Assembly (NCBI GenBank): GCA_963753345.1
Contig: CAVWBU010000024.1
Span: forward strand, 171,483-235,482
Reading direction: 5' to 3'
Origin: an uncultured Fibrobacterota bacterium
GTDB lineage: Bacteria > Fibrobacterota > Chitinivibrionia > Chitinivibrionales > FEN-1185
DNA length: 64,000 nucleotides
The notes under the pieces were generated by a model, which ran no database searches, was not told the DNA's origin, and saw only the letters and a list, made by a program, of their open reading frames with translations. Below are positions 7,274 to 35,629 of this stretch, in pieces. The position numbers and the translations under genes were made by a program. Each line of letters starts with the position of its first letter. The first letter of the stretch is position 1.

Positions 7274-8167
7274 ATGAAAACCACCCGCTTGCTCCTGTGC
7301 GGCATTGCCTGCGCAGCCGCTCTTCTCTCGAATTGCACGACCACCACGGGTCCCTCGAGTCCAACCGGTCCTTCCCAGCCGACGCAGCCCGCCACGCTCA
7401 CCGTTTACAACAATTCTTTAGGGGTTATCGGGTATGTGTATCTGTCGACAAGCCAGGCGTCCCTGGGAACCGATGAGCTGGGAAGCTCGACGATCTCGGC
7501 AGGCTCATCCTTCAGCATCACCGGGATTTCGGCCGGATACTACTATCTTGCGGCCGTCCATCTTTACACGCACGACACTGCTTGGGCGAGCTTGAGTATT
7601 ACTGCGGGACAATCCTACACCTGGACGCTTTCCGATGCCGACTTTTCCAATGGCTCCCGCGGCGGCCTCACGATCATCAACAATTCCTCCTACACCATCG
7701 AATATGTGTATCTGTCGCAAAGCAACTCAACATGGGGCAGCGATTGGCTGGGCAGCAGCACCTGGATATCCCCGGGGTTCTACTACACTATTTCCGGTGC
7801 GCCCACCGGATACGTGAACTCGAAGATGGTGTGTACCGATGCAACCAGGTATGCGCTGCACCTGCTCTATGTTCCAAGCAGCGGCTTGGACACGATCACG
7901 GTCTATAACACCGATTTTCCAAGCTACGCGCACGGAAGTCTCAAGGTCGTCAATACTTCCTCAACTTCCATTTACTACCTTTTCATGCGCATGTCCGGCA
8001 CCACCACGTGGAGCGACGACGTGCTCGGCGTAGTATCAACAATCGGCGTTGGTGAACAGTACCAGCAGGACCTGATAGCTCCAGGCACCTACGATTTCCG
8101 CGTGGAGTCTTCGAGCGGCGCCGCGCCGAGGTCGACAATCAGGACATCACCGCAGGAGAGCTTCTGA
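7274..8167 (+). CDS. lipoprotein with three internal ~75-aa repeats
   Basis: The lipobox is LLSNC. Three repeats begin LTVYNNS.., LTIINNSS.. and LKVVNTSS.., and each contains Y(V/L)YLS..W(G/S)(S/D)D.LG. Confidence 0.65.
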   Translation: MKTTRLLLCGIACAAALLSNCTTTTGPSSPTGPSQPTQPATLTVYNNSLGVIGYVYLSTSQASLGTDELGSSTISAGSSFSITGISAGYYYLAAVHLYTHDTAWASLSITAGQSYTWTLSDADFSNGSRGGLTIINNSSYTIEYVYLSQSNSTWGSDWLGSSTWISPGFYYTISGAPTGYVNSKMVCTDATRYALHLLYVPSSGLDTITVYNTDFPSYAHGSLKVVNTSSTSIYYLFMRMSGTTTWSDDVLGVVSTIGVGEQYQQDLIAPGTYDFRVESSSGAAPRSTIRTSPQESF

Positions 8168-8276
8168 CCTGGACGGTAAGCTCGATGAACTGATGATGCG
8201 GGAAGCGTGCGTTTGTTTGTGCGGGAGAAACTTCACCGGACTGTTTGAGGTTTCACGGCCGCGGGAGTGGAGCGTC

Positions 8277-9026
8277 TCACCCCATCTTCTCCGCCTGCCT
8301 GCCGGGAAACCATTCCCATAACCCGATCGTTCCGTTTTCCATTTTCGCAAACGTGTATTTCCTGATCCATTCCCCTGTGTTAACGTACACCTTGTCGCCG
8401 TATCGCCGCAGTTCCGGACGGTGCGTGTGCCCGAAAATCACGATATCGCTTCCCTCAAGCAGCTTCCTGGCGCAGCGCCGGTATTCCTCGAGCTTTTCCT
8501 CGGTGATCCAGTCGGCGAGCATTTTCCTGCTGTTGCCGGAGAAGAATGAGGCCAGCGGCACCCCGATATCGGGGTGAAGCAGCTTGTAAAGCCGTTGATT
8601 GAGCCGATTGCGGAGAATGCGCTTGAGGATGCGGTATCCCACGTCTTTCTTGACCACGCCGTCGCCGTGAAACAGATGAACCCTTTTCCCCTGGATCGTT
8701 GTCTCGAAATGGTCGAGATGAATGCGAAGGCCCACAATGTCTCGCAGGAAAGGTCCCAGGGCGAAGTCGTGATTGCCGGCGAGATAGTGGATTTCCACCC
8801 CCGATTCCACCAGACCGGCCAGCCGCGAAACGACCGCAACATAGTCCGGCCTTATCGCGTGCCGGTATTCGATCCAGAAATCGAAAAGATCGCCCACGAT
8901 ATACAGCGCTTCGGCGCCGTCTTCGATTTCGTCAAGAAACGACAAAAGGTGCTTCTGCCGGTCATCGTGGCCCGGCATTGTTATGCCGAGGTGCGCGTCG
9001 GAAATGAAATACGTTGCCGATTTCAT
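8277..9026 (-). CDS. lpxH: UDP-2,3-diacylglucosamine hydrolase (calcineurin-like phosphoesterase)
   Basis: The metallophosphoesterase motifs FISDAHLG, VGDLFDFW, AGNHD and GHTH occur in LpxH order, and the 249-aa size fits. Confidence 0.8.
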   Translation of the reverse strand: MKSATYFISDAHLGITMPGHDDRQKHLLSFLDEIEDGAEALYIVGDLFDFWIEYRHAIRPDYVAVVSRLAGLVESGVEIHYLAGNHDFALGPFLRDIVGLRIHLDHFETTIQGKRVHLFHGDGVVKKDVGYRILKRILRNRLNQRLYKLLHPDIGVPLASFFSGNSRKMLADWITEEKLEEYRRCARKLLEGSDIVIFGHTHRPELRRYGDKVYVNTGEWIRKYTFAKMENGTIGLWEWFPGRQAEKMG

Positions 9027-9171
9027 GATAGTGCCCGATGTTCTTTACAAAGAGAGAAGACGAAATGCGGGGAATTTTTGGAAGGATGAGGCAGAGCGAC
9101 CATCCTGGAATGCGCTCTCTGCGGCGTGCGCGTCCGGGGAGTGCCCCGTGCACCGCCGCCGTACGCTCCCG

Positions 9172-9351
9172 CTATTCCCACAGGTCGTCGGTGCTATCGA
9201 GATCGCTTGCCATGTCGCTGAAGTTTGCGTTTTCGTCGTGGAGCGTGCCGAAATTAAGTTCCCTCATATCTTCGGGGGTGTCGTCGTCGTCGTCCAATTC
9301 ATCTACGTCGCGCAGGATTTCGTCCGCGTCGAACTGTTCGTCCAGAATCAT
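9172..9351 (-). CDS. small hyperacidic protein (59 aa), not in the ORF track
   Basis: By hand translation the product is MILDEQFDADEILRDVDELDDDDDTPEDMRELNFGTLHDENANFSDMASDLDSTDDLWE. There is a strong RBS (gGGAGGtgagatcgaATG). 24 of 59 residues are D/E. Confidence 0.55.
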   Translation of the reverse strand: MILDEQFDADEILRDVDELDDDDDTPEDMRELNFGTLHDENANFSDMASDLDSTDDLWE

Positions 9352-9648
9352 TCGATCTCACCTCCCTTCCCATGATGCTCGCTTGGCGTTCCGTAATTTG
9401 CAAGAGAATTATAATGGATTTTCTAATCCGTGTCAATATTTTTTTTGAAAAGGTTTTCGCGCAAAATCCCCGAATTCCCGCCGGTGCGCAACGTCCCGCC
9501 ACCGGCACTCGATACTACGTCGTGCGTTTCCCGAATATTACTCCCCATGCCGAAAAAGAGACGGACATTCGACGGCGGCTTGCAGGCGTGGAACGGTGCC
9601 CGTGTGCGACTGATTTGCCGAGAGGATTATACCGAGGATCCGAGGAGC

Positions 9649-9909
9649 CTACGACGAGCCTTTTTTCTTGAAGATGTCGTTGATTTCCTGCTGCACTTTC
9701 GCTTTGTAAAGCACTTCTTCGAGGTCGTGGGCAATCTGCTTGCCTTCGCTGAGCATTGCCGCCCTTTTTTCGAGAAGTGCGATTTCAAGTTCGCGGCGCT
9801 TGTTTTCTTCTTTGCGTATCTTGAAAACAAGGATCGAATGTCCCAGGGAGAGTCCCAGAAGCACGATGAGGATTTGAATAATCCAGAAAATGAGATATTC
9901 TTCGAACAT
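9649..9909 (-). CDS. small membrane protein with a coiled-coil tail
   Basis: The 86-aa product has one N-terminal TM helix (YLIFWIIQILIVLLGLSLGHSILVF) followed by a charged helical region. The RBS is weak. Confidence 0.45.
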   Translation of the reverse strand: MFEEYLIFWIIQILIVLLGLSLGHSILVFKIRKEENKRRELEIALLEKRAAMLSEGKQIAHDLEEVLYKAKVQQEINDIFKKKGSS

Positions 9910-10048
9910 CCGAATCGGCCCCGTTTCACTACGTGCGCACCTTTTTCCGCCGCCCTCTTTTCAATGCACCCTTAAAATATCTCCGGCATGAGGGGATTTC
10001 AATAATTTCGGGATTTATTTGGCCGCACGTCCAGGCATTTTTCCGGCG

Positions 10049-12508
10049 CTAGACCACCGGAAACGCATCGGTGTTGAAGTTCATCCTGCGCGCGAATTCG
10101 AGGAGCCGGATAAGGGTGTCCCGGTGCACCGAGCCCGGCGATTTCCGGAATTCCTGGTACAGGGGAACAAGCGTGGTTTCCATAATTGAGAAGAAAAGGT
10201 CTTCGGGCTTGCTTTTTGAAAACGGGATGCCGAACCGGTCGACGATGTTGAGCAGGTACCGCACACGGTCGGCGGAAACCTCGCTGAGCGTTTCGCCGAA
10301 TATCTGGAGCTCCGAGAGGAGCAGGTCGAGCAGGAGCCGGGCGCTTTCGGCGTAATCGATGGTGATGCCGTACTTCCGCGACTTTTTCCATAAGTCAAGA
10401 AGCCTGGTCCACACCTCGTCCTCGCGGCCGTAAATCTCTATCTCGTTGATGGTGACGTTCCACGTCGCGGTGAGGACGTAGGCGATGGGCGCGGCGACGT
10501 ACGGGGGCAGCGGCACGCCGAGGCTGGACAGCGAATCGAGTATCTTTTCGTTGCGCTCCATCCATGACGCGTACTTTTCGCGCGTGTCCTTCGCCATCTC
10601 GCCGAGAAAGAATCCGGCGAGTCTCACTTTCGATTCCTCGAACATCGACGAAAGGTTAAGCGCCACGGAGGTCGGATGGGCCTTGATGCCCTCGGGGTTC
10701 TCCGCGGCCGCATCGGCGGGAACGCACCACCCGTTAAGCAGGCCGTCCTCCTTTTCGAGGCACAGGGAAAAACGGCCGCGCTCCCCGCTGCTGCGGTTGC
10801 GTATGTCCGCCGTGAACAAGCCGCCGGCCTTGTGCCCGCCCGGCCGGGCACCCCCCGGAACCGACAGGGACACCTCGAAGCCGTAATAGTCGAACCTGCG
10901 CTCGGCCGCCTTGTCCGGCGCGACGGTCTTTTCCGCCGCCGCCGTAAAACAGAGCATTTCGAGATGGCGGAGGTAGGGCGCGACGGTCTCCCGGAAAATG
11001 GTGGCCCCGCTCTTTTCCGGAATGTTGCTTTTCGCGCCGGAAAGCATTTGCACGAACTCGTCGGTGACGCTTTCGCGCCGCAAGGGGTCGATGCCGAGCT
11101 GGAGCGCACGTCCGGCGTACATGATGTTCTGCACGGTCTCTATGCCGCTCACGTCCGAGAAAAACCACCCGCACGAGGTGAACGAGAACAGCATGTACTT
11201 CTGGGCCTCGAGCAGGCGCCTCAGGGCGAGAGCGTCCTCGTCGGAACAGCCGGCGCGCACGCCATGCTTTACAATATGCGATTTGAATTCCGCGAGCGTG
11301 CGGGTGTCTGCAAACCCCATATACGCATCGCGCAGTTTCCACGGATCGGCCGCGTGCGGCGAGACGGCCGCTTCGAATTCGTCGTCGACATGCTTCTGCA
11401 GGCGCTCAAACGCGGCGCGGAGCGGGCCGCGCCACGCCTGGTTCCACGAGGGCGGGCCGCCCGCCTTGCATCCGCAGTCCCGCGCCCACCTGCCCACGCC
11501 GTGGATGCAGCTCCATGCCGTGCCTTCGCCGAATTCGTTCTTGAGCGCCACCTCGAACACGGGAGGATTCTTCTCCAGATACCAGCCGAAATTGACCGGC
11601 ACGATGTTCATTTCGGACGCAAGCCTTCCAAAGAAATAGGCAAGGCACATGTCGCCGAACGGCTTGTGGTGACCGAACGTCTCGCCGTCGGTGGCGATCA
11701 CCACCACCTGGTCGCGTTCGTCTGCGTCGTCGTAGCAGGAACGTATCTTCGCTCCGAGCGCGCCGGCGCTCGACAGGAGATCGCCGAAGCTCACCTCTCT
11801 CGACAGGCCTTCGTTGAAGAAAAACGCGTCGATGTGGCCGCCGAGCCTTGCGCCGGCCTGGTCGCGGTTGTAAATACGGTACGCGCGCTTCGTGTCGAAA
11901 CCGCTCCCGGCGGGCCGCCACGGCCCCTTCCCGTCGAGGCCCCGGAATGTCTCGGCCTGGGCCGGCGACAGCACCACGAACCGCACGCCTTCCTCGATGA
12001 GGCACTGCACGGTCTCCATGTTGATTGCCGTCTCGGCGAGCCAGATCCCTTCGCATTCGCGTTTGTAACGCGACCGGAAGAATTCCTTTGCCCAGCGTAT
12101 CTGCGTTAGTTTGTCCCGCCGGGACGCGAGCGGCATAATCACGTGGTTGTACACCTGGGCCACGGCATTGCCGTGCCCGCCCCGGGCCGCGCAGGTCTCC
12201 CGGTCCGCCGCCACGATCCGCGCCGTGACCTTCGGGTGGTTCTTTTCGAGCCACCGAAAGAGCGTGGGGCCGAAGTTGTGGCTCATGTGCAGGTAGTTGT
12301 TGCGTATGTCAACGATCATGCCGCGCTGGTCGAGGATGCGCGAGAAGGCATTGGGCCGGTAGCACTGGTCGTAGATGCGCTCGTTCCAGTCGTGGTAGGG
12401 CGACGCGGAACCCTGTTTTTCTATAAAGTCAAGCCACGGGTTTTCGCGCGGCGGCTGGTAGAAATGGCCGTGGATCACCACGTACCGGTTCGCGGCGCCG
12501 CCCGTCAT
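10049..12508 (-). CDS. glycoside hydrolase family 57 protein with a C-terminal DUF3536-like extension
   Basis: VVIHGHFYQPPRENPW and ATDGETFGHH are GH57 hallmarks. The start is set at the in-frame ATG at 12508 (MTGGAANRYVVIHGHF), because the longer ORF extension reads through the intergenic repeat. Confidence 0.8.
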   Translation of the reverse strand: MTGGAANRYVVIHGHFYQPPRENPWLDFIEKQGSASPYHDWNERIYDQCYRPNAFSRILDQRGMIVDIRNNYLHMSHNFGPTLFRWLEKNHPKVTARIVAADRETCAARGGHGNAVAQVYNHVIMPLASRRDKLTQIRWAKEFFRSRYKRECEGIWLAETAINMETVQCLIEEGVRFVVLSPAQAETFRGLDGKGPWRPAGSGFDTKRAYRIYNRDQAGARLGGHIDAFFFNEGLSREVSFGDLLSSAGALGAKIRSCYDDADERDQVVVIATDGETFGHHKPFGDMCLAYFFGRLASEMNIVPVNFGWYLEKNPPVFEVALKNEFGEGTAWSCIHGVGRWARDCGCKAGGPPSWNQAWRGPLRAAFERLQKHVDDEFEAAVSPHAADPWKLRDAYMGFADTRTLAEFKSHIVKHGVRAGCSDEDALALRRLLEAQKYMLFSFTSCGWFFSDVSGIETVQNIMYAGRALQLGIDPLRRESVTDEFVQMLSGAKSNIPEKSGATIFRETVAPYLRHLEMLCFTAAAEKTVAPDKAAERRFDYYGFEVSLSVPGGARPGGHKAGGLFTADIRNRSSGERGRFSLCLEKEDGLLNGWCVPADAAAENPEGIKAHPTSVALNLSSMFEESKVRLAGFFLGEMAKDTREKYASWMERNEKILDSLSSLGVPLPPYVAAPIAYVLTATWNVTINEIEIYGREDEVWTRLLDLWKKSRKYGITIDYAESARLLLDLLLSELQIFGETLSEVSADRVRYLLNIVDRFGIPFSKSKPEDLFFSIMETTLVPLYQEFRKSPGSVHRDTLIRLLEFARRMNFNTDAFPVV

Positions 12509-25206: not shown

Positions 25207-26148
25207 TCAATTTCTCCGGAGTTCGCCGCGCCAGTATTCGAGAAGGTCGCCAAGGGTTGTGGCAAAGGGGATTTCCGGCTCCCACGAGGTTTCGGCGCGC
25301 AGCCTGGCGTTGTCGCCGGCGAGCCTGAGGGAGGTCTTTACTTCCCGGAGCTTGGTCGGTTCCTCGACCACGGTCAGGGACGCTGTGGACATCCCCACCA
25401 GAGCGGCGAGAACGTCGGCCAGCCTGCGCGTGACGCCCGAACACACGTTGTACACCCGTCCGCGCCCGCCATTGTCCATGATGAGCCGGTAGGCGTTCAC
25501 CACGTCGCGCACGTCCGAAAAGTCAATTTCAACCTCGCAGTCGCCCACGCGGATCTCCTGCGGCGCAAGCCCGGCCTCGGCCTGCGCGATCTGCCTGGCC
25601 CAGTCGGAACAGACGAACAGGGGGGACTGTCCCGGTCCGGTGTGGTTGAACGAGCGGGTGAAGCGGATGTCAAGCCCGTACTGGCGGCAGTATTGAAGCC
25701 CGACAAGTTCCGTTGCATACTTGGAAATGCCGTAGAAATTCGAGGGGTTCGGCAGCGCGTCCTCGGACACAAGGCCTTCGGCGGTGATGTCGTATTCCTT
25801 TGCCGATCCGACCAGCAGCAGTTTTGCCTGCGGGGAGAACCGTTTCATTGCGTCGATGACGGAAATGGTTCCGACGATGTTGATCGCAAGCGCGCTGCGC
25901 GGCGTGCGGTCCGCTTCCGCCGGGAAGCTCACGCCGGCAAGGTGGTAGATTTCCTGGGGTTCATGGCGGGAGAGTGACTGGGCGACCATATCGCTGTCGG
26001 TGATATCGACGAAATCGTAGGCAACACCCTCGAGCAGGCACGTCTGCTCGATACCCATGCCTGTAACGCGCCGGCCGTTCCTTGACAGCAAGCCGGCAAG
26101 GTGCTGGCCCGCAAAACCGTTTATCCCGGTGATGAGCGCGGTGATCAT
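25207..26148 (-). CDS. NAD-dependent sugar epimerase/dehydratase (SDR family)
   Basis: The Rossmann motif ITGINGFAGQHL and the catalytic YGISK (YxxxK) are present. The size is 313 aa. Confidence 0.8.
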   Translation of the reverse strand: MITALITGINGFAGQHLAGLLSRNGRRVTGMGIEQTCLLEGVAYDFVDITDSDMVAQSLSRHEPQEIYHLAGVSFPAEADRTPRSALAINIVGTISVIDAMKRFSPQAKLLLVGSAKEYDITAEGLVSEDALPNPSNFYGISKYATELVGLQYCRQYGLDIRFTRSFNHTGPGQSPLFVCSDWARQIAQAEAGLAPQEIRVGDCEVEIDFSDVRDVVNAYRLIMDNGGRGRVYNVCSGVTRRLADVLAALVGMSTASLTVVEEPTKLREVKTSLRLAGDNARLRAETSWEPEIPFATTLGDLLEYWRGELRRN

Positions 26149-26182
26149 TGATTGGTGTTTTTCCTGTCCTTATTAAAAATAG

Positions 26183-29182
26183 TTACCGTGCATGGAATTC
26201 ATGAAATTTTCGATATACCTCTTTGAGAAGATTTTCGCCTACCAGGGTCTTGAAATCCTTGTCATTCATGTACTTCGCGGTGATCTCCTCATTGCTTTCC
26301 ATGCGGTCGATGAACAGCCCTTCAAGCGCCTTTACAAAAACATATCCGAAATTTTCCATGGTATTTGCCAAGGCAGCCTGCCGTAAGGCAGGATCAGCCA
26401 AGGCATCCTCCTTGATCGAATCGAAAAAGAGCTGGTCGGAAGGCTTGAACTCGGTCCCAAACCGTTCATTCAGAATGTCGATAAGTTTTGAAAGCTCGAT
26501 TTTCGGTTCACGCACGATATGAGTGCCAACCTCGGACGGTCCGCTCACCGGATACGGTTTCCCGCTTTCAAGAACAATTGAACCCTCGGAAATCTTTTGG
26601 AGCCGGTAATATTTGAGCGACACTTCATCGTCGAACGAATAGGATATTCCCGAGGAACGTCTTGGTAATTTGACAAGAAGGAAGCGAACAAATGCGTAGA
26701 ACTTTTCGAGGTCTACATCTTGAAACGGAATGATCTGCGAAAGGAAGGAATAGAGATTACGAAAAGCAGACAGAACCTTTCGGAAATTCTCCCGTTCCTC
26801 TTCTTCGAGTGCCTTAAACCGGCCAACCGCCGGATCGATGGCCGCATTGATGCGGGCGTGGTCGGTGGGCGTCTGGTTCGCCGTGGGCTTAAAGAACGCC
26901 TCTGCAAAGGCCTCCACCTCGGCCTTGTAGTACACCTGCGCCGAATCAAGACGGGCTTGGAGTTCATAAAGATGGCGTGCTTCGACCCGCTCCCCCACTT
27001 CAGTTTGTTCATAGTAGGGCTGAAATGCCTCTACTATTTCTTCCCTATCATTTACAAAATCGAGCACAAAGGTTTCTTCCTTGCCCGGATGAGTGCGATT
27101 CAAGCGAGAAAGGGTCTGAACAGCTTGAATGCCGGAAAGCCGTTTGTCCACGTACATGGTATGAAGGAGCGGCTGGTCAAAGCCGGTTTGGTACTTCTCC
27201 GCGACAAGAAGCACCTGGTACTCGTCGGTTCCGAATTTCTCAGGAAGTTCTTTTTCTTTGATACTCTTATTCATGGCTGGTTCCGTATATGACGCATCCG
27301 CGTTTTCATGGTCAATGACGGTTCCCGAAAATGCGACAAGTGTCTTGATACCGGCATATCCCTTCTCCGCGATATACTTGTCAAAAGCAATCTTGTACCT
27401 GACGGCATGAAGGCGTGACGAGGTCACGACCATGGCCTTTGCTCTTCCGCCAATGCGCTGTTTGACGAAGGTTCTGAAGTGCTCGACCATCACCTCTGTC
27501 TTCTGGGCGATATTGTGGGGATGCAGCGACATAAACCTCGCCAGCGCTTTGGCGGCCTTTTTCTTGTCCACCTGCGGATCGTCGGCTATGGATTTGATAA
27601 GGCGGTAATAGGTAGTGTATGTGACATAGTTCTCCAGGACATCGAGTATGAATTTTTCCTGGATAGCCTGACGCATGCTGTAAAGATGAAAAGGCTCCGG
27701 TTTACCGTCTTTTCCGACAATGCCGAACATTTCCAGCGTCTTGTATTTCGGGGTGGCCGTAAAGGCGAAGAAACTGATATTCGGCTGGCGGCCGCGGCGG
27801 GCAAGGGTCTTGAGAATTTCCTCTTCGAAATCGGGCAGGCTGCGTTCCTCCGCCTGCTCTGCCGCGGCATCCCCGGCTTCGCGGCCTGCAAGAACGCCCC
27901 GCATTTCAGCAGCGCCTTCCCCGCTCTGCGAGCTGTGCGCTTCGTCGATAATGACCGCATATTTGCGCGACGGCAGGTCGCCGATTTTGTCCGTAACAAA
28001 GGGGAATTTCTGTAATGTGGTAATAACGATTGGAACGGCAGATGAAAGCGCCGCGGCAAGTTGGTTCGAGCTTTCGTCAATTTTCTGCACCACACCCTGC
28101 TTATGTTCAAATTGGTAAACGGTGTTCTGCAATTGCTGGTCGAGCACCAGGCGATCCGTAATGACAATGACGGAATCAAAAACCTTTTCGTCCTTTGCAC
28201 TATAGAGGCTCGAAAGCCGGTGCGCCAACCACGCAATGGAATTGCTTTTCCCGCTTCCTGCCGAATGTTGCACCAGATAATTATTGCCAACGCCGTTTGT
28301 GCGTGCGTGCGCTATCATCTTCCGCACGGAATCGAGTTGATGGTAACGGGGGAAAATCATGGTCTCTTTCTTGAGTTTCTGCCCGCCGAATATTTTTTCC
28401 TCGATTTGCAAATGCAGGAAGCGTGCAAATATGTCAAGAAAACTGTCCCGCTGCCATACCTCTTCCCACAAATACGCCGTCTTGTACCCGTTTGGATTAT
28501 CCGGATTGCCTGCCGCCGTGCCGTTGCCCTTGTTGAAAGGCAGGAAATAGGTGTTCTGCCCTGCAAGCTTCGTAGTCATGTACACTTCATCCGGATCGAC
28601 GGCAAAATGAACAAGGCTACGTTTGCGAAATTGGAAAAAGAGGTCTTTAGGATCGCGGTCGTTTTTATACTGGTGAATGGCATTTCGCCAGGTCTGACCG
28701 GTTAGTGGGTTCTTGAGTTCCGCCGATACTACAGGAATGCCGTTGATGTTGAGTACAAGGTCAATTTCGTTCTTATGGTTTTGGCTGTAACGAAGCTGCC
28801 GCGTTACGGTGAGGCGGTTGGAGTCGTAGAGGCGTTTGATTTCCGGGTTCATTCCGCTTGCGGGCGCAAAATAAGCAACCCTGAAGAGCTTCCCGAAGCA
28901 CTTGAATCCGTGGCGGAGAACTTTTAGACACCCCTCACTTTCCGAGTCAAGCGCCTTGCAAAGGTCGTCGAGAAGCGTGGCCTCGGCTTTGCCTTTCTGA
29001 AGACCTTCGAGATAATCCCAGGTGTCCGGCTGAGTTTTTTTGACAAACGGGATAAGCACCGTAGGATCGAGACAGCGTGCCGGGTCGAACGATACCGGAT
29101 CGCCCCTGGAGAAGTCCCCTGTGGTGAGAAGGCAATGCTCGATTGCCGTTTCAAAGGCTTTTTCTGAATGGTCGGTGGGCAT
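26183..29182 (-). CDS. hsdR: Type I restriction enzyme, R subunit
   Basis: The 999-aa product has an N-terminal nuclease-like IDLVLNINGIPVVSAELK, helicase motif I HSAGSGKS and motif II IIDEAHSSQ (DEAH). Confidence 0.9.
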   Translation of the reverse strand: MPTDHSEKAFETAIEHCLLTTGDFSRGDPVSFDPARCLDPTVLIPFVKKTQPDTWDYLEGLQKGKAEATLLDDLCKALDSESEGCLKVLRHGFKCFGKLFRVAYFAPASGMNPEIKRLYDSNRLTVTRQLRYSQNHKNEIDLVLNINGIPVVSAELKNPLTGQTWRNAIHQYKNDRDPKDLFFQFRKRSLVHFAVDPDEVYMTTKLAGQNTYFLPFNKGNGTAAGNPDNPNGYKTAYLWEEVWQRDSFLDIFARFLHLQIEEKIFGGQKLKKETMIFPRYHQLDSVRKMIAHARTNGVGNNYLVQHSAGSGKSNSIAWLAHRLSSLYSAKDEKVFDSVIVITDRLVLDQQLQNTVYQFEHKQGVVQKIDESSNQLAAALSSAVPIVITTLQKFPFVTDKIGDLPSRKYAVIIDEAHSSQSGEGAAEMRGVLAGREAGDAAAEQAEERSLPDFEEEILKTLARRGRQPNISFFAFTATPKYKTLEMFGIVGKDGKPEPFHLYSMRQAIQEKFILDVLENYVTYTTYYRLIKSIADDPQVDKKKAAKALARFMSLHPHNIAQKTEVMVEHFRTFVKQRIGGRAKAMVVTSSRLHAVRYKIAFDKYIAEKGYAGIKTLVAFSGTVIDHENADASYTEPAMNKSIKEKELPEKFGTDEYQVLLVAEKYQTGFDQPLLHTMYVDKRLSGIQAVQTLSRLNRTHPGKEETFVLDFVNDREEIVEAFQPYYEQTEVGERVEARHLYELQARLDSAQVYYKAEVEAFAEAFFKPTANQTPTDHARINAAIDPAVGRFKALEEEERENFRKVLSAFRNLYSFLSQIIPFQDVDLEKFYAFVRFLLVKLPRRSSGISYSFDDEVSLKYYRLQKISEGSIVLESGKPYPVSGPSEVGTHIVREPKIELSKLIDILNERFGTEFKPSDQLFFDSIKEDALADPALRQAALANTMENFGYVFVKALEGLFIDRMESNEEITAKYMNDKDFKTLVGENLLKEVYRKFHEFHAR

Positions 29183-29353
29183 TTCTTATCTTTCGAAATT
29201 GTCTATTGCTATTACTTCCGTATTGCTACTACGCTTCTTTCTGAATGCGGAAGTAGCAAATCGTATCTCGCATTGATTCAATCCATTATATGATTTTACG
29301 GCTGCGTTTACTGCTAATTCAATCTCTTTTTTATTGCTATTGTTCTTCCATTG

Positions 29354-29382
29354 TTGACTTATGTTGTCTTTTGTGTTATCTT
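29354..29382 (+). promoter_or_regulatory. candidate sigma70-like promoter on the strand opposite the R-M genes
   Basis: TTGACT (29354-29359) is separated by 17 nt from TATCTT (29377-29382). Confidence 0.4.
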
Positions 29383-29388
29383 ATTATT

Positions 29389-29508
29389 GCAGGCAAGCGC
29401 AGGATTGTAGAGGTCGCCGGACAACGGCGGCAGCCCGTTTCGGGTGGGATCCTCGAACCTGGGGCCTGTTAAGAAGCGAACTTCTCAATATGAGAGTTCG
29501 CTTTTTTC
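29389..29508 (+). ncRNA. candidate ~120-nt structured small RNA (unclassified)
   Basis: It lies between the candidate promoter and the intrinsic terminator. Hairpins are GUCGCCG-GACAA-CGGCGGC (29413-29431) and GCCCG-UUU-CGGGU (29433-29445). A possible closing helix is AGGAU (29401-05) with AUCCU (29449-53). No convincing ORF is present. Confidence 0.35.
29474..29508 (+). terminator. rho-independent terminator (T-tract on the + strand)
   Basis: The stem AAGCGAAC(T)TCTC - AATAT - GAGAGTTCGCTT is followed by TTTTTC. It sits 5 nt beyond the stop of the minus-strand ATPase gene and is A-rich on the other side, so it may act in both directions. Confidence 0.6.
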
Positions 29509-29512
29509 ATTG

Positions 29513-31078
29513 CTATGCCGAACGCCATGTGGAAATGAATTCCCTGATTTTATTTGCCAATTCATAAACTTCACCACGTTTGGCAGAGGTTTCTTTTTTT
29601 GCGAGAATACGCATTATTTGCGGAGGGGTCTTTGCTAATTCAGTGGCAAATGAAAAAAATCTGTTTTTAGCTATGGCTTGAGGCTTATCGGCAGCATTGG
29701 CGTATAATGCGGTCAGGCGGCCCAATTTTTCGAGAATTATTTCTCCGGTCATGTTGAAAAGCTCGGTATAGTCTTCGGGATGCTGGCTAATTGTCTTCCA
29801 TGCCCATTCTTCCGGTACGTCGTTACCAGGGAGAAAAACAATCTGAGCAATCTGGCCCATTTGGGTAGCTTTCGCTTCCAACTCCGGGCCGATTTCCCTT
29901 CCGTCACCGTCAAGTACAAAGACCATATCATTTAATTTACGAAATTTTCCCAACGTATCAAGATGATTGGAAAATTGGTCTTTTCCGGTATCCCTGCCTA
30001 CGTCAATATCATTCTGTAGAAAATCGAGTTCGGGACCCAAATAATCAAGAATACCCCTGATAAAATTTTCCGACTCCTCATCTTCACAAAGGAAAGATAA
30101 CGTGTTTTGTGATCGACCGTATAAGGCTTTCTGGATTAAATCGCGATATGCATCTCGTCGAACAACGTTCCTGTTTGACCGCTCCAGAAAAAGCCGCCCT
30201 TCGGGTGGCACGGTTTCAAGAATCGTCGGGCTATGGCTGGTTACCACGATCTGCAGCTTGTTCCGAAGAGCGAGACGTTGTAATTCCAGCATGAGCATTT
30301 GCTGTAAATAAGGATGAAGCCCGGTCTCTACTTCGTCGATCAGCACCAGGGCTTCTGACATTTTCGATACTGCCATAGAGAGTCTCAGGATCGAACGTTC
30401 TCCGGCAGACATGTTGAATTCCGAATATGAGGGAATGGTTCCGTCGGATTCGGCGCTACGCTGGGCGAACAACAAGTCGCGAACGCCAGAAGAAATTTTA
30501 TTCAGCGCGGTGTAACGATACGGTAAAATGGCATGAGCGAAAGCTATATCCGAAGCGTCAATCACGATGGAGTCATATTGTTTATATGCCAATTGGAGGA
30601 CACTCCTGACTTCAGAAGGATTACTTAAATTCGCCAGTGTGCGAAGGTATACTTGTCGTTCAGGTTGCATGGCCTTGGGACGTCCAAAAAAACTCTTGCT
30701 CCACTTTTCCTTATTGCGCTTCCAACGCATCTGCATCGTCGCGCCCAGGTGGATATAGGTAAAAGTCAATTCGGTTTCAAACCGCGTGTCACGAAGATGT
30801 TCCTCCCCGCTCGAAGGAGAAAAAGCCGGAAAAAGACGCGCCGGCGTTAAATCGTAGCGACCAACATTATAAGCGGTAGCCAAGGCAAACAAAACCGTCG
30901 ACTTACCGCACCCGTTCGCGCCGGCCAGAACCGAAACAGGGTATGAAAGGGGTACATTCAACTCGGCAATGCCGCGCAGATTCCTGATTTCGATTTTGTC
31001 GAGATTTTCCGCGCGGTTCGGTTTCTGGCCGCGAAGCTGATCCCAGATTTGTTCAAGATTTTTTTTGATCGGATTCAT
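29513..31078 (-). CDS. ABC-type (AAA_15/21-like) ATPase fused to a Toprim/DUF4435-like C-terminal region
   Basis: ATPase motifs are Walker A GANGCGKST, signature-like MSAGERS, Walker B LVLIDEVETGLHP and H-loop TSHSP. The C-terminus carries LSFLCEDEESENFIRG ... VFVLDGDGRE ... LPGNDVPEEW. The RBS is AGAGGA. The gene is embedded between hsdS and hsdR. Confidence 0.8.
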   Translation of the reverse strand: MNPIKKNLEQIWDQLRGQKPNRAENLDKIEIRNLRGIAELNVPLSYPVSVLAGANGCGKSTVLFALATAYNVGRYDLTPARLFPAFSPSSGEEHLRDTRFETELTFTYIHLGATMQMRWKRNKEKWSKSFFGRPKAMQPERQVYLRTLANLSNPSEVRSVLQLAYKQYDSIVIDASDIAFAHAILPYRYTALNKISSGVRDLLFAQRSAESDGTIPSYSEFNMSAGERSILRLSMAVSKMSEALVLIDEVETGLHPYLQQMLMLELQRLALRNKLQIVVTSHSPTILETVPPEGRLFLERSNRNVVRRDAYRDLIQKALYGRSQNTLSFLCEDEESENFIRGILDYLGPELDFLQNDIDVGRDTGKDQFSNHLDTLGKFRKLNDMVFVLDGDGREIGPELEAKATQMGQIAQIVFLPGNDVPEEWAWKTISQHPEDYTELFNMTGEIILEKLGRLTALYANAADKPQAIAKNRFFSFATELAKTPPQIMRILAKKETSAKRGEVYELANKIREFISTWRSA

Positions 31079-31136
31079 TGAATATCCTCTATTCTTTGTT
31101 ACAAACTAAAATAACTATTCCACAATCGAAATGGCA

Positions 31137-32483
31137 CTATGTAGCACTATTAGGAACTTTCACTTCGTTGCGGACGTCGATTTTGCCGGTGACGGCGGAG
31201 GAGATGAGGGAGGTGCGATATTTTTGAAGAAGCACAACGCTCTGCGCTACTTTGCCAAAAACCCGATCAACCGAATCAAGCGCCTTTTCAACGGCAGAAA
31301 CGATTTGAGCCTGTTCGTCCGTTGGCGGAATCGCTAGAAAAAAATTGCCCAAGTCTTCCATGGACAAATTAGGCTGAGCAGATTGAACGGCGTCTATCCA
31401 AAGCCGTTTTTGCATGAAATCCGATTGTAAGCAAAAATGCAAGAAAGAGGGATTAGCGCTTGGCTTGGGTCTTATAAAAGCAACGGCTTGATTTGTATTG
31501 GCGGGCAGAAACTTCTTTTCGAGAATAGCAGATTTCCCAATTGTGGCACCTGCTATAACAAAAAGAATATCGGATTCCCGGAGGCATGATCTGAATATGA
31601 GCTTATTTGTTTCATCATCTATGAAGAATTGTGGATTGGGAGAGACCGTATTGTTTATTATGTTTTCAGCCTTAATAAACCGAACAGTCCCTTCAAGTTC
31701 AATTTCTTTGCCAATAGTAGAAGGAGTTGTACCCTTAGAAATACGATCAGTTTGGAATTTAAGTCGGGATATTTTCCAGTGCTCCGGCACCTTCCCCAAC
31801 CATTCCACCCCCGAATCCTTCATCTTCACCTTCGGGTCAAGCCCTTGGGTCACCGCTTGACTTATGAGCGCCACACGTTTCTTCTGCAAGAGCTCGAGTT
31901 GTTTGCGCTTCTTTTCTATGAGGGTATCTATCCGCTCGGTCTCGCGGTCGAGAAAGGCGGCGATGGCACGTTGTTCGGGGAGAGGGGGAACAGGTATTGG
32001 AATATCTCCAACGATATCTGTGTTAAGGTTAAGTTGGGTGCCAAATTTACCAAGACCGCCATATGGTTTACCACTTGAGAAGATGTAATATAGGAAGTCA
32101 CGGTTTTGTGAGAGATATGGGAAGTAAACAAAGCCGTCGTGAATACAGCACTTTATTTTGGTGATAATAGGCTTGCCTACTGAGCCTGCAATGCTCAAAA
32201 AAAGGTCGCCTGGTTGCATAGGAACGCTGAGTGATTTGCCCAGAATGGAAAGTCGTTGGGTAGTGGACTTAAGGTAGCGATCACTGGCTGTAACATCTGC
32301 AATACGAACCCAAGAATATTCACCATCAGCATCGAAATATTTGGGGTCATCTATTGGACGAGGGGACGCACCGCGTTTGACAAGTGATAGCCGTTTGGTT
32401 TTCATGACTTGCCAATGAGATGGAACACGGCCAATCCATTGACTACCCGACTCTTTGTATTGCAGGTGGAATTTGTATCTCAT
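31137..32483 (-). CDS. hsdS: Type I restriction enzyme, S (specificity) subunit
   Basis: There are two target-recognition halves. Each is followed by a conserved helix: PLPEQRAIAAFLDRETERIDTLIEKKRKQLELLQKKRVALISQAV, and PPTDEQAQIVSAVEKALDSVDRVFGKVAQSVVLLQKYRTSLISSAVTGKIDV. The start overlaps the hsdM stop by 4 nt. Confidence 0.9.
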   Translation of the reverse strand: MRYKFHLQYKESGSQWIGRVPSHWQVMKTKRLSLVKRGASPRPIDDPKYFDADGEYSWVRIADVTASDRYLKSTTQRLSILGKSLSVPMQPGDLFLSIAGSVGKPIITKIKCCIHDGFVYFPYLSQNRDFLYYIFSSGKPYGGLGKFGTQLNLNTDIVGDIPIPVPPLPEQRAIAAFLDRETERIDTLIEKKRKQLELLQKKRVALISQAVTQGLDPKVKMKDSGVEWLGKVPEHWKISRLKFQTDRISKGTTPSTIGKEIELEGTVRFIKAENIINNTVSPNPQFFIDDETNKLIFRSCLRESDILFVIAGATIGKSAILEKKFLPANTNQAVAFIRPKPSANPSFLHFCLQSDFMQKRLWIDAVQSAQPNLSMEDLGNFFLAIPPTDEQAQIVSAVEKALDSVDRVFGKVAQSVVLLQKYRTSLISSAVTGKIDVRNEVKVPNSAT

Positions 32484-34495
32484 TCTCCCCCCGCCAGCAT
32501 CTCCGCAATCTCCCTCTCAATCCCCTTCAACTCCGCCTCAATCTTCTCCAGCGGTTCCGGCGGCTCATACTTATAGAAATATCTATTGAAATTTATTTCA
32601 TATCCTATCTTCGTCTTTTCCTCATCAATCCAGGCATCCGGCACATGCGGCAGCACTTCCCGCTTCATGTATTCGTCAACCTTTTCCTTGAGCGGCACGT
32701 TTTCGTAATCCCGTAGTTCTGAGTCGGGTTCCGGCTTTCCGTCGCTGTCCAGGCATATTTCCGCGGTTGGGTCGCGTTCCGAAAGTGCATCGAGGATTCC
32801 ATTAAAAAGACCGGAAGATACGGGCACATCAGCATCCTTGAGGGCACGCCGCAGAATTGAAATAAACTTCTCCCTGTTTTTGCAGAGTGGCTGCTTCTTT
32901 AACGGTTCCAAAACGGAAAGTACCTGTTTCTGCTGTTCGCGGCCTTCCTTTTCTTCCTGATCTTTGGCTTTTATGTCCTTTTTCTTTTTGCTCTCCGCAA
33001 GGCCAACAAATGATGACAAGACTTTTACCCGTTCAATTCTCTCATCCGAGACAATGAAATTGAGCTTGAGCGGCCTTTCAACGGTGATCCGCCTGTATCC
33101 GAAATCTTCATTGTCAAATACTTTCACCTTCTCCCCGTCCTTGTAATCCCCATAGAGCCGAACTATTTCTTCAATGTGGGGCTGTGAAATTTCGTTGCGT
33201 TTGTTGCCCAGGCTCTTCCGCATCTTTTGGAAAGCTCCCGTGGCGTCGATCATCTGTATTTTTCCACGCCGCTGTCTGGCTTTGCGGTTGGTGACAATCC
33301 AAAGATACGTGCTGATGCCGGTATTGTAGAAAAGCTGGTCGGGCAAGGCGACAATGGCTTCCAGCCAGTCGTTTTCTATGATCCATTTCCTGATGTTACT
33401 CTCGCCGGAATCCGCGCTGCCGGTAAAAAGCGGCGAACCATTGAAAACAATGGCCAGTCGCGTTCCACCCTCGGCCATTGGTTTCATCTTGCTTATCATG
33501 TGCTGAAGGAAAAGAAACGAACCATCGTTGATCCGCGGCAGGCCTGCGCCGAAGCGGCCGTCTGTGCCGCGTTCGTTGTATTCCTTGTCAATGAAATCTT
33601 TTTCCGGTTTCCATTCGACGCCAAAGGGCGGATTTGCGAGCATGTAATCGTATTTCTTACCGGTAAAGTAATCCTCGGTGAAACTGTCCCCGAAACGGAT
33701 ATTCTCGATATTCTGTCCTTTTATCATCATGTCGGAGCCGCACACGGCAAAGGCTTGGTCGTTGTAGTCCTGTCCGAACACCTCCAGCGTCGCATCCGGA
33801 TTGAGCTCACGAAGATAATCTTCGGAAACCGACAGCATGCCGCCTGTGCCGCACGCAGGGTCAAAAAGCGTTCTTATTGTGCCGGGTTTCCGCAGCAGAT
33901 CATCATCCGGATCGAAAATCAGGTCTACCATGAGGCGGATAACTTCCCTCGGCGTGAAATGGTCTCCGGCCTCTTCGTTGGAGGCTTCGTTAAACCGCCT
34001 GATGAGTTCCTCGAATATGTATCCCATTTCGATGTTGGAAACGACATCAGGGTGGAGGTCAATTTCACAGAATTTCGAAACGACCAGAAAGAGACGGTTG
34101 TGCTTGTCGAGGTTTGCAATATGTTCTTCGAACTTGAAATGTTCGATTATTTCTCTCGCATGTGGGGAAAAATTCTTGATGTAGTGAGTAAGGTTTGCTG
34201 CAATATTTTCCGGGTCGCCTTTGAGTTTTTCGAACGTAAACCTGCTCGTGTTGTAAAATGACTGCCCGGAAGCCCGTAGTAGGATTCGTTCCTTGCCGAT
34301 TTCGTTGAGCTTGCCGCCTTTCAGTTCCTTGGCCTTGGCAAGGACTTTGTCCTTGGTTGATTCCAGGACGCAATCCAGGCGCCGGAGCACCGTGAGCGGC
34401 AACATCACATCTTTATATTGGTTGGGACGGTACGGGCCCCGGATCAGGTCGGCAACGCTCCAGATGAAACCCACTTTATCGCTGAAATTGGTCAT
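32480..34495 (-). CDS. hsdM: Type I restriction enzyme, M subunit (N6-adenine DNA methyltransferase)
   Basis: The HsdM_N-like FIWSVADLIRGPY, SAM motif DPACGTGGML and catalytic NPPFG (MLANPPFGVEW) are present. The start is set at ATG 34495 (MTNFSDKV). Confidence 0.9.
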   Translation of the reverse strand: MTNFSDKVGFIWSVADLIRGPYRPNQYKDVMLPLTVLRRLDCVLESTKDKVLAKAKELKGGKLNEIGKERILLRASGQSFYNTSRFTFEKLKGDPENIAANLTHYIKNFSPHAREIIEHFKFEEHIANLDKHNRLFLVVSKFCEIDLHPDVVSNIEMGYIFEELIRRFNEASNEEAGDHFTPREVIRLMVDLIFDPDDDLLRKPGTIRTLFDPACGTGGMLSVSEDYLRELNPDATLEVFGQDYNDQAFAVCGSDMMIKGQNIENIRFGDSFTEDYFTGKKYDYMLANPPFGVEWKPEKDFIDKEYNERGTDGRFGAGLPRINDGSFLFLQHMISKMKPMAEGGTRLAIVFNGSPLFTGSADSGESNIRKWIIENDWLEAIVALPDQLFYNTGISTYLWIVTNRKARQRRGKIQMIDATGAFQKMRKSLGNKRNEISQPHIEEIVRLYGDYKDGEKVKVFDNEDFGYRRITVERPLKLNFIVSDERIERVKVLSSFVGLAESKKKKDIKAKDQEEKEGREQQKQVLSVLEPLKKQPLCKNREKFISILRRALKDADVPVSSGLFNGILDALSERDPTAEICLDSDGKPEPDSELRDYENVPLKEKVDEYMKREVLPHVPDAWIDEEKTKIGYEINFNRYFYKYEPPEPLEKIEAELKGIEREIAEMLAGGE

Positions 34496-34638
34496 GGGTA
34501 ACAGTCCTCTTATGCAAAGAGTCAATCGCGGTATCAACAGGCAGTGAGGTAATATAATGCCGAAAGAAGTTTACAATCCAGCAATTTCTTAGTTTCAAAG
34601 CAATCGTTACCTCTGCGCGATTTCCTTTCCAACATGGC

Positions 34639-35629
34639 TCAACCGCATCGCCCCATAACCGCCATGCACGCATCAAACACCTGCGAAACCGGAATTGCAC
34701 TCATGCACGCCTTTCCGCACTCGCCGAGAGGAATGGAGGTTGACGGATGGCAATGGAAGCACGCTTCCTGCGGTGCGGAAACAACGGTGACGTTGTCGCC
34801 CCCGGGCCGCCACACGGCCGGATCGGACGGCCCAAACAGCACGACGCTGGGCGCGCCCGCGGCCGCGGCACAGATGGGAAATTCCGGAGTCGTTGCCCAC
34901 GTAGAAAACGCAGCGGGAAAAAATATGAACAAGCGCCGGCAGTGAAGCTTCCCGCACAACCCTGTCCTGGGCGCGGGCTGCAACCTTCCGTTCCGCTGGC
35001 CCCATGATCCACACGATGCGGACTTTTCTTTCGGCCAATTGTTCCGCTAAATCAAGATAGCGCTCCAAGGGCCAGTTCTTCCTCGCGCTGCCACTGCCGG
35101 GATGCAGTGCGACAAAGGTTCCGATTCCGTCAAGCAGCCGGTCCGATTCGCTTTTGAATTCTGGATGAGGGGCCAAAGCCGGGAGGTCGCGCGCGGCCCC
35201 GGTTCCCATGCCGAAAAGCGACAAATGGTAATCGCTGACATGAATGCACTGACGCGGAAACGGGTCCTGAAACAGGAGGCGGTGCATTCCGAATTGCCTG
35301 AACCGCGCGAGCACCGGGGAGTCGGGCGCGGTAAAAAGCAGGGCAGACCGGACAGCGGACAATTTGGCCTTTATTGACAAAGGAATTGCCGTCTCGCGTG
35401 CGTAAAGCCACGAAAACGCCGCGCTTTCGACATCCAAGACCTCGTCAAAAAGGCCGCAATGAACGCCCAGGATGCCGTAGGATGGTTTCCCGAGCAGAAC
35501 TCTTCTGCTTTGAGTGTCTTGCCTGTTCCATTCCCCCAGCGCAGGAAAGGTGGTGATAAAATCTCCCAGGCCGCCGGTGTGGTAGACAAGAGAGATAGTA
35601 GATGATTTTGGTTTGTTGATTTGAGGCAT
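34639..35629 (-). pseudogene. glycosyltransferase family 9 (heptosyltransferase-like), frameshifted
   Basis: Frame 1 reads LVYHTGGLGDFITTFPAL ... YVGNDSGISHL. Homology then continues in another frame as AAAAGAPSVVLFGPSDPAVWRP ... CFHC. The frame switch falls at about 34868-34876. Confidence 0.7.

Follow-up and report, generated by a model that had tools for sequence, protein, structure and literature searches.

The window that we analyzed is a 64,000-nucleotide stretch of DNA from an uncultured Fibrobacterota bacterium, and it contains a Type I restriction-modification (R-M) locus on its minus strand. The end of hsdM (32480..34537; Pfam N6_Mtase and HsdM_N; PADLOC MTase_I, 3.5e-293) overlaps the start of hsdS (31137..32483; two matched stretches of Pfam Methylase_S; PADLOC Specificity_I, 2.9e-112) by 4 bases, and further along the same strand is hsdR (26183..29182; Pfam HSDR_N, SWI2_SNF2, ResIII and T1R_D3-like; PADLOC REase_I, 9.6e-41). 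By Pfam and PADLOC, all three Type I proteins are encoded here: an HsdM, an HsdS that has two target-recognition domains, and an HsdR in which nuclease and helicase regions are joined by a domain-3 region. Direct repeats flanking the R-M island were looked for and not found, nor was there a tRNA or an integrase at its edges.

Between hsdS and hsdR is the gene under study, a HEC-04-like open reading frame (29513..31078, minus strand) that we refer to as ORF X and that reads as 521 amino acids without stops. Its ATG is 6 nt downstream of a Shine-Dalgarno sequence, AGAGGA (31085..31090, minus strand), located within the 58-bp spacer that separates it from hsdS. The translation, the AGAGGA, and the Pfam and PADLOC assignments of the neighbors confirm the original prediction, which had placed here a same-strand ORF of this length with its own ribosome binding site. 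ORF X follows hsdS on the same strand after 58 bp, with no terminator in between, and is therefore probably co-transcribed with hsdM and hsdS. The transcript would end at a terminator just past ORF X, and hsdR would have an upstream region of its own. The 330-bp, AT-rich spacer between ORF X and hsdR (29183..29512), which holds an RNA gene, contains two promoter-like sites on the minus strand upstream of hsdR (29411-29383 and 29322-29293).

Each of the motifs quoted in the original prediction could be located in ORF X at the position given for it: the Walker A motif GANGCGKST (residues 53-61, bases 30896-30922), MSAGERS (residues 223-229), the Walker B motif LVLIDEVETGLHP (residues 244-256), TSHSP (residues 280-284), an acidic stretch, LSFLCEDEESENFIRG (residues 327-342), VFVLDGDGRE (residues 386-395), and LPGNDVPEEW (residues 416-425). 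Full-length homologs of ORF X, at 47-61% identity, are carried by many phyla. In 51 such homologs, K59, E227, D248, E249, H282 and E332 are invariant, as are D333, E337, D390, G391, D392 and E423. Because full-length homologs occur in many phyla and the quoted motifs are invariant, ORF X is, judged by its conservation, a real gene, and a chance ORF is ruled out.

The N-terminal two thirds of the protein had been described as an ABC/SMC-like ATPase of the AAA_15/AAA_21 kind, and both Pfam (AAA_21, 1.1e-21; AAA_15, 4.1e-20; also SMC_N) and Foldseek support this. The Foldseek search with the ORF X model matched PtuA, GajA and OLD at E values of 1e-10 to 1e-11. Together with the invariant motifs, these matches place the ABC-type ATPase domain at residues ~22-305 (30164..31015, minus strand), with K59 in the Walker A motif, a signature-like MSAGER (residues 223-228), D248-E249 in the Walker B motif, and H282 as the H-loop histidine.

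When ORF X was compared with the PADLOC models, HEC-04 was the best of 147 hits (E = 2.9e-36, 123 bits), with residues 19-439 of 521 (81%) aligned to positions 20-413 of 494 (80%) in the model. HEC-04 is Hma-embedded candidate 04 from E. coli MOD1-EC5853 (WP_044502283.1/WP_081360980.1; PADLOC PDLC04149), an ATPase-TOPRIM fusion that protects E. coli from phages (Payne, Hughes, Fineran, Jackson, 2024 preprint, bioRxiv 10.1101/2024.01.29.577857). Its defense is abolished by K62A and also by an E319A/D375A/D377A triple mutant, it is toxic upon induction, and the validated protein itself scores only E = 5e-53 against its own PADLOC model, with coverage 0.80/0.83 (Table S2, bioRxiv 10.1101/2024.01.29.577857). 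By BLASTP, ORF X residues 21-392 align with residues 24-377 of the validated HEC-04, for which the comparison sequence was the first 399 of 490 residues, at 27% identity over 392 columns (E = 1e-26). In this alignment K59, E332, D390 and D392 of ORF X fall on K62, E319, D375 and D377 of HEC-04. A comparison of the ORF X family profile with HEC-04 in hhalign gave 99.8% over 348 columns and extended to LPG..PE. HEC-04 was also the best match for 10/10 ORF X homologs tested, some of them solitary and others located in Hma, Type I or BREX-like systems.

A second characterized relative is IbfA of the IncI1 plasmids R64 and pUA1135, which acts by abortive infection on phages that include BF23 and P22-like ones and was labelled HEC-04 by a published PADLOC run (PMC12111858). 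The R64 protein scores 141 bits on the PADLOC HEC-04 model, similar to ORF X. It has the same architecture and length (518 aa), with equivalents of VEDD, LDGD and LPxxxKPE, and in hhalign the ORF X family profile aligned with it at 99.3% over 384 columns, covering both domains, whereas BLASTP picks up no more than the first 230 residues (27% identity). Unlike ORF X, IbfA is plasmid-borne and not embedded. A tblastn search of ORF X against 72,556 plasmids returned only AAA ATPases at 24-42% identity and did not reach IbfA. NCBIfam contained no specific model for ORF X (22/22 hits were far under cut-offs).

On these alignments, ORF X is a distant but clear homolog within the HEC-04/IbfA family. 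It shares with HEC-04 a single-polypeptide organization, in which an ABC ATPase at the N-terminus is joined to a TOPRIM or Toprim-like domain at the C-terminus, as well as the motifs YSEFH, LVLI(D/E)E(V/I)E.GLHP, (V/C)ED(E), (I/L)DGD and LPG..PE. Embedding in Hma systems (a DUF1156 methylase, a DUF499 ATPase and a helicase), the defining context of HEC-04, is found in members of the ORF X clade as well. The two proteins differ in length (521 aa against 490 aa), in context (a Type I R-M locus against Hma) and in host (an environmental bacterium of roughly 58-60% GC against E. coli). The suggestion that this fusion and its context might be an undescribed variant therefore does not hold: the protein belongs to the HEC-04 family (PDLC04149), and embedding of defense genes in Type I R-M is already treated as a general phenomenon (bioRxiv 10.1101/2024.01.29.577857).

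The C-terminal third had been likened to Toprim/DUF4435 nuclease domains. In AF2 models of ORF X (pLDDT 88.6 and 89.9), residues ~320-430 (29789..30121, minus strand) form a Toprim-like core with four parallel strands at residues 327-331, 358-362, 385-389 and 412-415. E332 (30083-30085) follows strand 1, D390-G-D392 (29903-29911) follows strand 3, and E423 (29810-29812) follows strand 4; a conserved Glu after strand 1 and a DxD after strand 3 are the Toprim-type layout. In isolation (residues 305-521), the domain had no match in Pfam at E <= 10 and nothing significant in a profile search of PDB sequences. Foldseek likewise returned no significant match, either from the PDB (best E = 0.066, lumazine synthase; GajA, E = 0.3) or from BFVD (an RloB-like protein, E = 0.08; DnaG/twinkle TOPRIM, E = 0.09). 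Among the PADLOC models, the C-terminal fragment matched the retron I-B ATPase-Toprim model marginally (E = 0.003), and a profile of residues 305-521 searched against 1.84 billion representatives gave 241 hits, all from the ORF X family. We thus found no independent bridge from this domain to other Toprim families in Pfam, the PDB, Foldseek, hhalign to P2 Old or the 1.84 billion representatives. With nothing significant from Pfam, the PDB or Foldseek for the domain by itself, its assignment as Toprim-like draws on homology to HEC-04 and IbfA, on its motifs and on its topology. The Toprim-like E...DxD arrangement of the original prediction is supported on this basis, and Pfam gave no match to DUF4435. 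On the refuting condition that the prediction set for itself, the lack of a significant nuclease or Toprim-like profile or structural match of the C-terminal region, the isolated domain gave only the marginal retron I-B match.

Could the C-terminal domain instead be a degenerate Toprim- or flavodoxin-like regulatory or oligomerization domain, with the protein acting only as an ATPase sensor or scaffold? The searches with the isolated domain are compatible with this, as the top structures were generic three-layer alpha/beta folds. We nevertheless regard this alternative as very improbable. E332, D333, E337, D390, G391, D392 and E423 do not vary across the 51 homologs, and the AF2 models put the acidic residues where a Toprim domain would have them, at the C-terminal ends of strands 1, 3 and 4. 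Moreover, the equivalent residues are essential to HEC-04 defense (bioRxiv 10.1101/2024.01.29.577857), and the retron I-B ATPase-Toprim profile aligns through the C-terminal region.

Beyond the core, residues ~431-521 (29516..29788, minus strand) make up a clade-specific helical region, with AF2 helices at residues 434-520, which falls outside the alignments to IbfA and HEC-04 and in which R490, E496 and W518 are invariant. Because ORF X is only 27% identical to HEC-04 and its last ~90 residues are clade-specific, its trigger and specificity may differ from those of HEC-04.

The domain order and structural matches of ORF X bear out its place in a broad class of ATPase-plus-Toprim systems that includes OLD, GajA and PARIS. 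As in ORF X, an ABC ATPase is followed by a Toprim domain in the OLD family (P2 Old, Thermus and Burkholderia OLD), in GajA and in the retron I-B (Eco8) effector. Structural alignments of the full-length ORF X model to GajA, Thermus OLD and the retron Eco8 effector extend over 600-700 columns, with E values of about 1e-10 to 1e-9, and the retron I-B ATPase-Toprim profile matches ORF X at E = 1.2e-25 (PADLOC). Against OLD, GajA and the retron I-B effector, however, the Toprim part of ORF X is below significance, and an hhalign comparison of its family with phage P2 Old aligned the ATPase alone, with no Toprim. Pfam identified no OLD/Gabija-type partner (GajB-like helicase, UvrD) and no retron RT adjoining the gene. 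With its Toprim part left out of the P2 Old alignment and with HsdS and HsdR as neighbors, ORF X was not assigned to OLD/GajA. A type I-B retron was rejected as well, as there is no RT among the neighbors and Rfam detected no retron RNA in 25800-35000. PARIS also combines an ABC ATPase with a Toprim-class effector, and AriA models match the ORF X ATPase at 1e-22, but PARIS consists of two proteins, AriA and AriB, whereas ORF X is one polypeptide. The AriAB fusion model of PADLOC matches ORF X through the ATPase motifs only, Pfam found no DUF4435 in ORF X, and the C-terminal fragment matched nothing at E <= 1 in the AriB and AriAB models, so PARIS was rejected.

PrrC, RloC and rloA/rloB of Type I R-M loci also encode accessory ABC-type ATPases from positions between the hsd genes, and the C-termini of PrrC and RloC are anticodon nucleases. 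ORF X differs from PrrC and RloC in its Toprim-like C-terminus and in that its family is mostly not R-M embedded, whereas PrrC is almost exclusively so (bioRxiv 10.1101/2024.01.29.577857). Its C-terminal fragment matches a Toprim model only, and 6% of its homologs are Type I-embedded, for which reasons we rejected a PrrC/RloC type. PrrC and RloC models were absent from the best 25 PADLOC hits of ORF X.

We asked of the genomic distribution of the family whether ORF X is coupled to the R-M enzyme beside it. Neighborhoods of homologs were described from greedy gene calls and Pfam summaries, as raw six-frame ORFs were too noisy in high-GC loci. Of 80 genomic homologs, 62 have neither a Type I locus nor an Hma system around them; 13 lie within Hma systems and 5 within Type I loci. 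The relatives nearest in sequence (58-61% identity) stand by themselves, surrounded by housekeeping genes. In Type I loci, the slot varies: the gene is between M and S in three cases and between S and R in three, the window included. Among these loci, HsdM identity is only 27-53%, which, as far as sequence divergence can tell, points to independent insertions. The Type I loci that carry homologs belong to unrelated Type I families.

This distribution bears directly on the earlier proposal that ORF X monitors or backs up the flanking Type I enzyme. A PrrC-like guard of this kind would be kept latent by the enzyme, or would sense its state, and would fire when an Ocr- or Stp-like anti-restriction protein of a phage disables it. 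Such a role would suit the probable co-transcription with hsdMS and the presence of five other homologs inside Type I loci of unrelated families, far above random-gene expectation. It would also suit the report of Ocr as a trigger of the related ABC-ATPase systems PARIS and Gabija (discussion, bioRxiv 10.1101/2024.01.29.577857). Yet most homologs have no R-M or Hma genes nearby, 13 are in Hma, the nearest relatives are solitary, and the variable position and divergent HsdM proteins speak for independent insertions. In addition, HEC-04 gives protection in an E. coli strain devoid of R-M (MG1655 Delta-RM), and IbfA is functional on a plasmid where it has no R-M partner (PMC12111858). We therefore find the monitoring or backup role unsupported, and consider a guard function improbable.

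The spacer downstream of ORF X holds a DUF3800-VII structured RNA (Rfam RF02967; 29388..29475, plus strand), which is convergent with ORF X and 37 nt from its stop. The Rfam match covers model positions 1-90 of 90 and scores 69.1 bits (E = 1e-14), above the gathering score of 36.2, and there is covariation among 10 copies of the RNA. A promoter-like sequence for the RNA, TTGACT-17-TATCTT, is found at 29354-29382. By folding, a hairpin with a T-run at 29474..29509 forms a canonical intrinsic terminator for the RNA gene on the plus strand and, on the minus strand, a hairpin 9 nt after the ORF X stop (dG -17.2, z -3.35). The whole RNA with its terminator on the plus strand, a stem followed by UUUUUU, has dG -56 and z -4.9. 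A local HMM made from five DUF3800 partners found no DUF3800 gene in the window, and Pfam detected no DUF3800 in ORF X, HsdR, HsdS or HsdM. Other copies were compared with this one. In a metagenome scan with a loose pattern, 118/120 stretches among the matches listed were there by chance, and with a tighter pattern on viral contigs 7/8 hits were true copies. The RNA forms a convergent pair with a DUF3800 gene in 6/9 other instances, in the same geometry as it has with ORF X. Two more copies face an unrelated 85-aa ORF in convergent orientation; the partner of the RNA can therefore vary.

From this geometry one might suppose that ORF X, sitting in the slot of DUF3800, forms a protein-RNA module in which the adjacent RNA is a regulator, antitoxin or cofactor, the more so as the RNA is intact and has its own promoter-like site and terminator. 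A covariance model of the RNA, however, found it in 0/87 other loci with ORF X homologs (1.44 Mb), and ORF X and the RNA as a conserved pair were rejected on this ground. In the 15 of these loci that were scanned with Rfam, there was no DUF3800-type RNA. No such RNA is reported to take part in the action of HEC-04 or IbfA, and a relic of a replaced DUF3800 cassette is a simpler account of the adjacency. We thus hold a protein-RNA module at this locus to be very unlikely.

The reading that we prefer, and that we consider likely, is that ORF X acts on its own, as a single-protein anti-phage effector of the HEC-04/IbfA family, and was dropped into the hsdS-hsdR gap. An autonomous module fits because the closest homologs are solitary and HEC-04 is active in a Delta-RM host. 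In this model, the Type I R-M island would have been acquired horizontally, and its hsdS-hsdR gap would have received ORF X. The N-terminal ABC ATPase would bind ATP through K59, the signature-like S224-G226-E227, D248-E249 and H282, and, as an ATP-engaged dimer or oligomer of the kind that other ABC/SMC/OLD heads form, would sense an infection cue. It would then license a C-terminal Toprim-type two-metal center composed of E332, D390, D392 and probably E337 and E423. The licensed center would cut nucleic acid, most likely DNA, the substrate of OLD and GajA, and less likely tRNA, that of AriB. Cutting would stop phage replication, probably at the cost of the cell, which would amount to abortive infection.

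ORF X opens no new class. The locus adds a divergent clade, at 27% identity to the tested protein, to the HEC-04/IbfA single-protein ATPase-Toprim defenses, and this clade spans many bacterial phyla and Methanothrix. Because members of the family turn up repeatedly inside Hma, Type I and BREX-like systems and yet mostly live alone, the family supports a view of "guilt-by-embedding" in which such slots are landing pads for autonomous defense genes and do not indicate functional coupling. The orphan DUF3800-VII RNA beside ORF X hints at cassette exchange within the R-M operon, and it offers a handle on an RNA class that has been without a known function since 2017. There is a small chance that RNAs of this orphan class are portable and serve varied nuclease effectors, here an ATPase-Toprim protein, as regulator, antitoxin or cofactor, or that the Type I-embedded ORF X is wired to R-M and answers anti-restriction proteins; if either were true, the locus would be more than another HEC-04 homolog.

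The Type I R-M operon is read from the minus strand and comprises hsdM (32480-34537), hsdS (31137-32483, overlapping hsdM by 4 bases), the 521-aa ORF that we refer to as X (29513-31078), and hsdR (26183-29182). X begins after a gap of 58 bp from hsdS and is preceded by an AGAGGA ribosome-binding site. The longest hsdM ORF begins with a TTG at 34537; residue 16 is the first to be covered by its PADLOC MTase_I alignment, and the real start may lie further downstream. The original prediction read X as an ATPase joined to a Toprim-like nuclease domain, and each motif that it quoted was found at its stated position. These motifs are invariant or nearly so among 51 full-length homologues with 47-61% identity to X. 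Among the invariant positions are K59, E227, D248, E249, H282, E332, D333, and E337, and likewise D390, G391, D392, and E423.

We found that the top PADLOC match for X among 147 was HEC-04 (E 2.9e-36, residues 19-439), an ATPase-TOPRIM fusion defence protein from E. coli reported in a 2024 preprint (10.1101/2024.01.29.577857); the second was the retron I-B ATPase-Toprim model (1.2e-25). HEC-04 was also the best match for all ten X homologues tested, regardless of context. When X was compared by BLASTP with residues 1-399 of the tested HEC-04 protein (Table S2 of 10.1101/2024.01.29.577857), the two aligned over 392 columns with 27% identity (E 1e-26), pairing K59, E332, D390, and D392 of X with K62, E319, D375, and D377 of HEC-04. 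Defence is lost in the K62A and the E319A/D375A/D377A mutants of HEC-04, and its induction is toxic (10.1101/2024.01.29.577857). The X family profile matched HEC-04 with an hhalign probability of 99.8%. It also matched IbfA, taken from the plasmid R64 record, at 99.3% with both domains aligned; IbfA has long been known as an abortive-infection gene, and was placed in HEC-04 by a 2025 paper (PMC12111858). The HEC-04 model scores IbfA at 141 bits and X at 123 bits. These PADLOC, BLASTP, and hhalign matches place X within the HEC-04/IbfA family, as a divergent member. The suggestion that X might be an undescribed variant is therefore not upheld, as its kind is already known and experimentally validated in HEC-04.

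The ATPase part of the predicted architecture was accurate. The strongest Pfam matches to residues 22-305 are AAA_21 (1.1e-21) and AAA_15 (4.1e-20); SMC_N and AAA_23 match less well. A confident AlphaFold2 model built from the family alignment (mean pLDDT 88.6) has as its best PDB matches defence-system ABC-type ATPases (E 1e-11 to 1e-9), namely PtuA of Septu and retron I-A, GajA, Thermus OLD, and the retron Eco8 effector, the last three each aligning over 600-700 columns.

The Toprim part of the claim stands on homology, motifs, and modelled strands, and drew no significant Pfam, PDB, or Foldseek match when the C-terminal domain was searched alone (residues 305-521; separate model pLDDT 89.9). 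Pfam returned no match to these residues even at E <= 10, and a PDB profile search with them found nothing. Foldseek found no PDB match at E <= 0.001 (lumazine synthase came closest at E 0.066, and GajA reached E 0.3) and none in BFVD at the same threshold, where an RloB-like protein reached E 0.08 and a DnaG/twinkle TOPRIM E 0.09. The sole marginally significant direct Toprim link was the retron I-B ATPase-Toprim profile (E 0.003), and a profile of the domain run against 1.84 billion representatives gave 241 matches, all from its own family. The model contains four parallel strands, and the invariant acidic residues follow strand 1 (Glu), strand 3 (DxD), and strand 4 (Glu). The HEC-04 authors superposed the HEC-04 TOPRIM domain on Burkholderia OLD, and the HEC-04 residues homologous to the acidic motif of X are essential for defence (10.1101/2024.01.29.577857). 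This strand layout and these essential residues favour a Toprim identity, which is well supported by homology and motifs rather than independently demonstrated here.

The original prediction also proposed that X monitors or backs up the flanking Type I enzyme. We classified the surroundings of 80 homologue loci from species-representative genomes. Only five homologues lie in Type I loci, between M and S in three (L011, L049, L056) and between S and R in two (L012, L029), and the HsdM proteins of these loci share 27 to 53% identity with that of the window. Thirteen are embedded in Hma systems, adjoining the DUF1156 methylase, DUF499 ATPase, or helicase. The remaining 62 lie in neither; one of them sits between a PglX-like methylase and RhuM, and many adjoin SMC, SecA, Lhr, or metabolic genes. 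Of the relatives examined, the two closest (58-61% identity) are solitary among housekeeping genes. Moreover, HEC-04 is active in an R-M-free host, and such embedding has been described as a general phenomenon in Hma, BREX, DISARM, and Type I R-M systems (10.1101/2024.01.29.577857). The homologue contexts, the solitary relatives, and the activity of HEC-04 without R-M argue for X as an autonomous module, inserted time and again into the gaps that multi-gene defence systems offer, and against X as a co-evolved monitor of its neighbour. The proposed guard function is not upheld, and we found no support for functional synergy with the Type I enzyme or for triggering by anti-restriction proteins.

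Other gene arrangements were seen among these loci. One Hma locus (L075, from a Candidatus Azotimanducaceae genome) carries tandem X-family genes at 7983-9839 and 9632-11560 (E 8e-131 and 3e-144), and a second, weaker AAA_15-type gene lies near the X homologue in L066 and L011. In 4 of 72 loci, a HEPN_Swt1-domain gene is found directly 3' of the X homologue; it may likewise be a defence gene that is repeatedly embedded or co-embedded.

The 8.4 kb spanning hsdR to hsdM (about 26100-34600) has 43-52% GC versus 56-63% in its flanks, and interrupts a series of genes for cell-envelope and housekeeping functions (epimerase, heptosyltransferase, signal peptidase, GSCFA, YqeY, DprA); this region is thus an island acquired horizontally. 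We found no integrase, no tRNA, and no direct repeats flanking it, and no other defence genes lie nearby. Because the hsdS-X gap has no terminator-like site, a strong hairpin lies directly downstream of X, and the AT-rich, 330-bp X-hsdR spacer contains promoter-like sites ahead of hsdR, it is probable that X shares a transcript with hsdMS and that hsdR is served by a separate promoter. The 64-kb window contains three AATAGCAATA-like repeats (29204-29213, 29221-29230, and 29332-29341, minus strand), all of them <=140 bp upstream of hsdR; chance alone would give about 1.2 matches over the full 64 kb. They could serve hsdR as an operator or regulatory site.

The same spacer encodes a full-length DUF3800-VII RNA (Rfam RF02967; 29388-29475, plus strand), which scores 69.1 bits (gathering score 36.2) and is convergent with X, 37 nt from its stop. 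A promoter-like TTGACT-17-TATCTT (29354-29382, plus strand) ends 6 nt ahead of the RNA, and the hairpin after X (29474-29509) forms a canonical terminator with a U-run on the plus strand. Aligned with nine other copies, taken from metagenome and viral contigs, the RNA shows strong covariation (98.6% of cells paired, compensatory changes in 10 pairs). Six of the nine have a convergent DUF3800 gene 0-200 bp from the RNA 3' end; two have an unrelated 85-aa ORF there instead, and one copy is truncated by the contig edge. The window contains no DUF3800 gene, X filling that slot, and the RNA's covariance model found no copy in the other 87 X-encoding loci. A functional pairing of X with the RNA is possible but unlikely; the simplest reading is that an earlier DUF3800-plus-RNA cassette occupied the hsdS-hsdR gap and that X took the place of its protein gene.

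The 85-aa ORF, which has no Pfam match, lies on viral contigs (L214, 7374-7631, plus strand; L215, 504-761, minus strand), and adjoins a C-5 DNA methylase in L214. In another RNA-bearing contig (L213), the RNA-paired DUF3800 gene (7426-8223, minus strand) is followed by a DUF4145 protein (8316-9113, minus strand); DUF4145 is also the N-terminus of the HsdR adjoining the X homologue in L012. This shared domain hints that DUF3800-RNA modules also occur in restriction-type neighbourhoods.

X adds a divergent member to the known, experimentally validated HEC-04 kind, and apart from the orphan structured RNA its locus offers no surprises.
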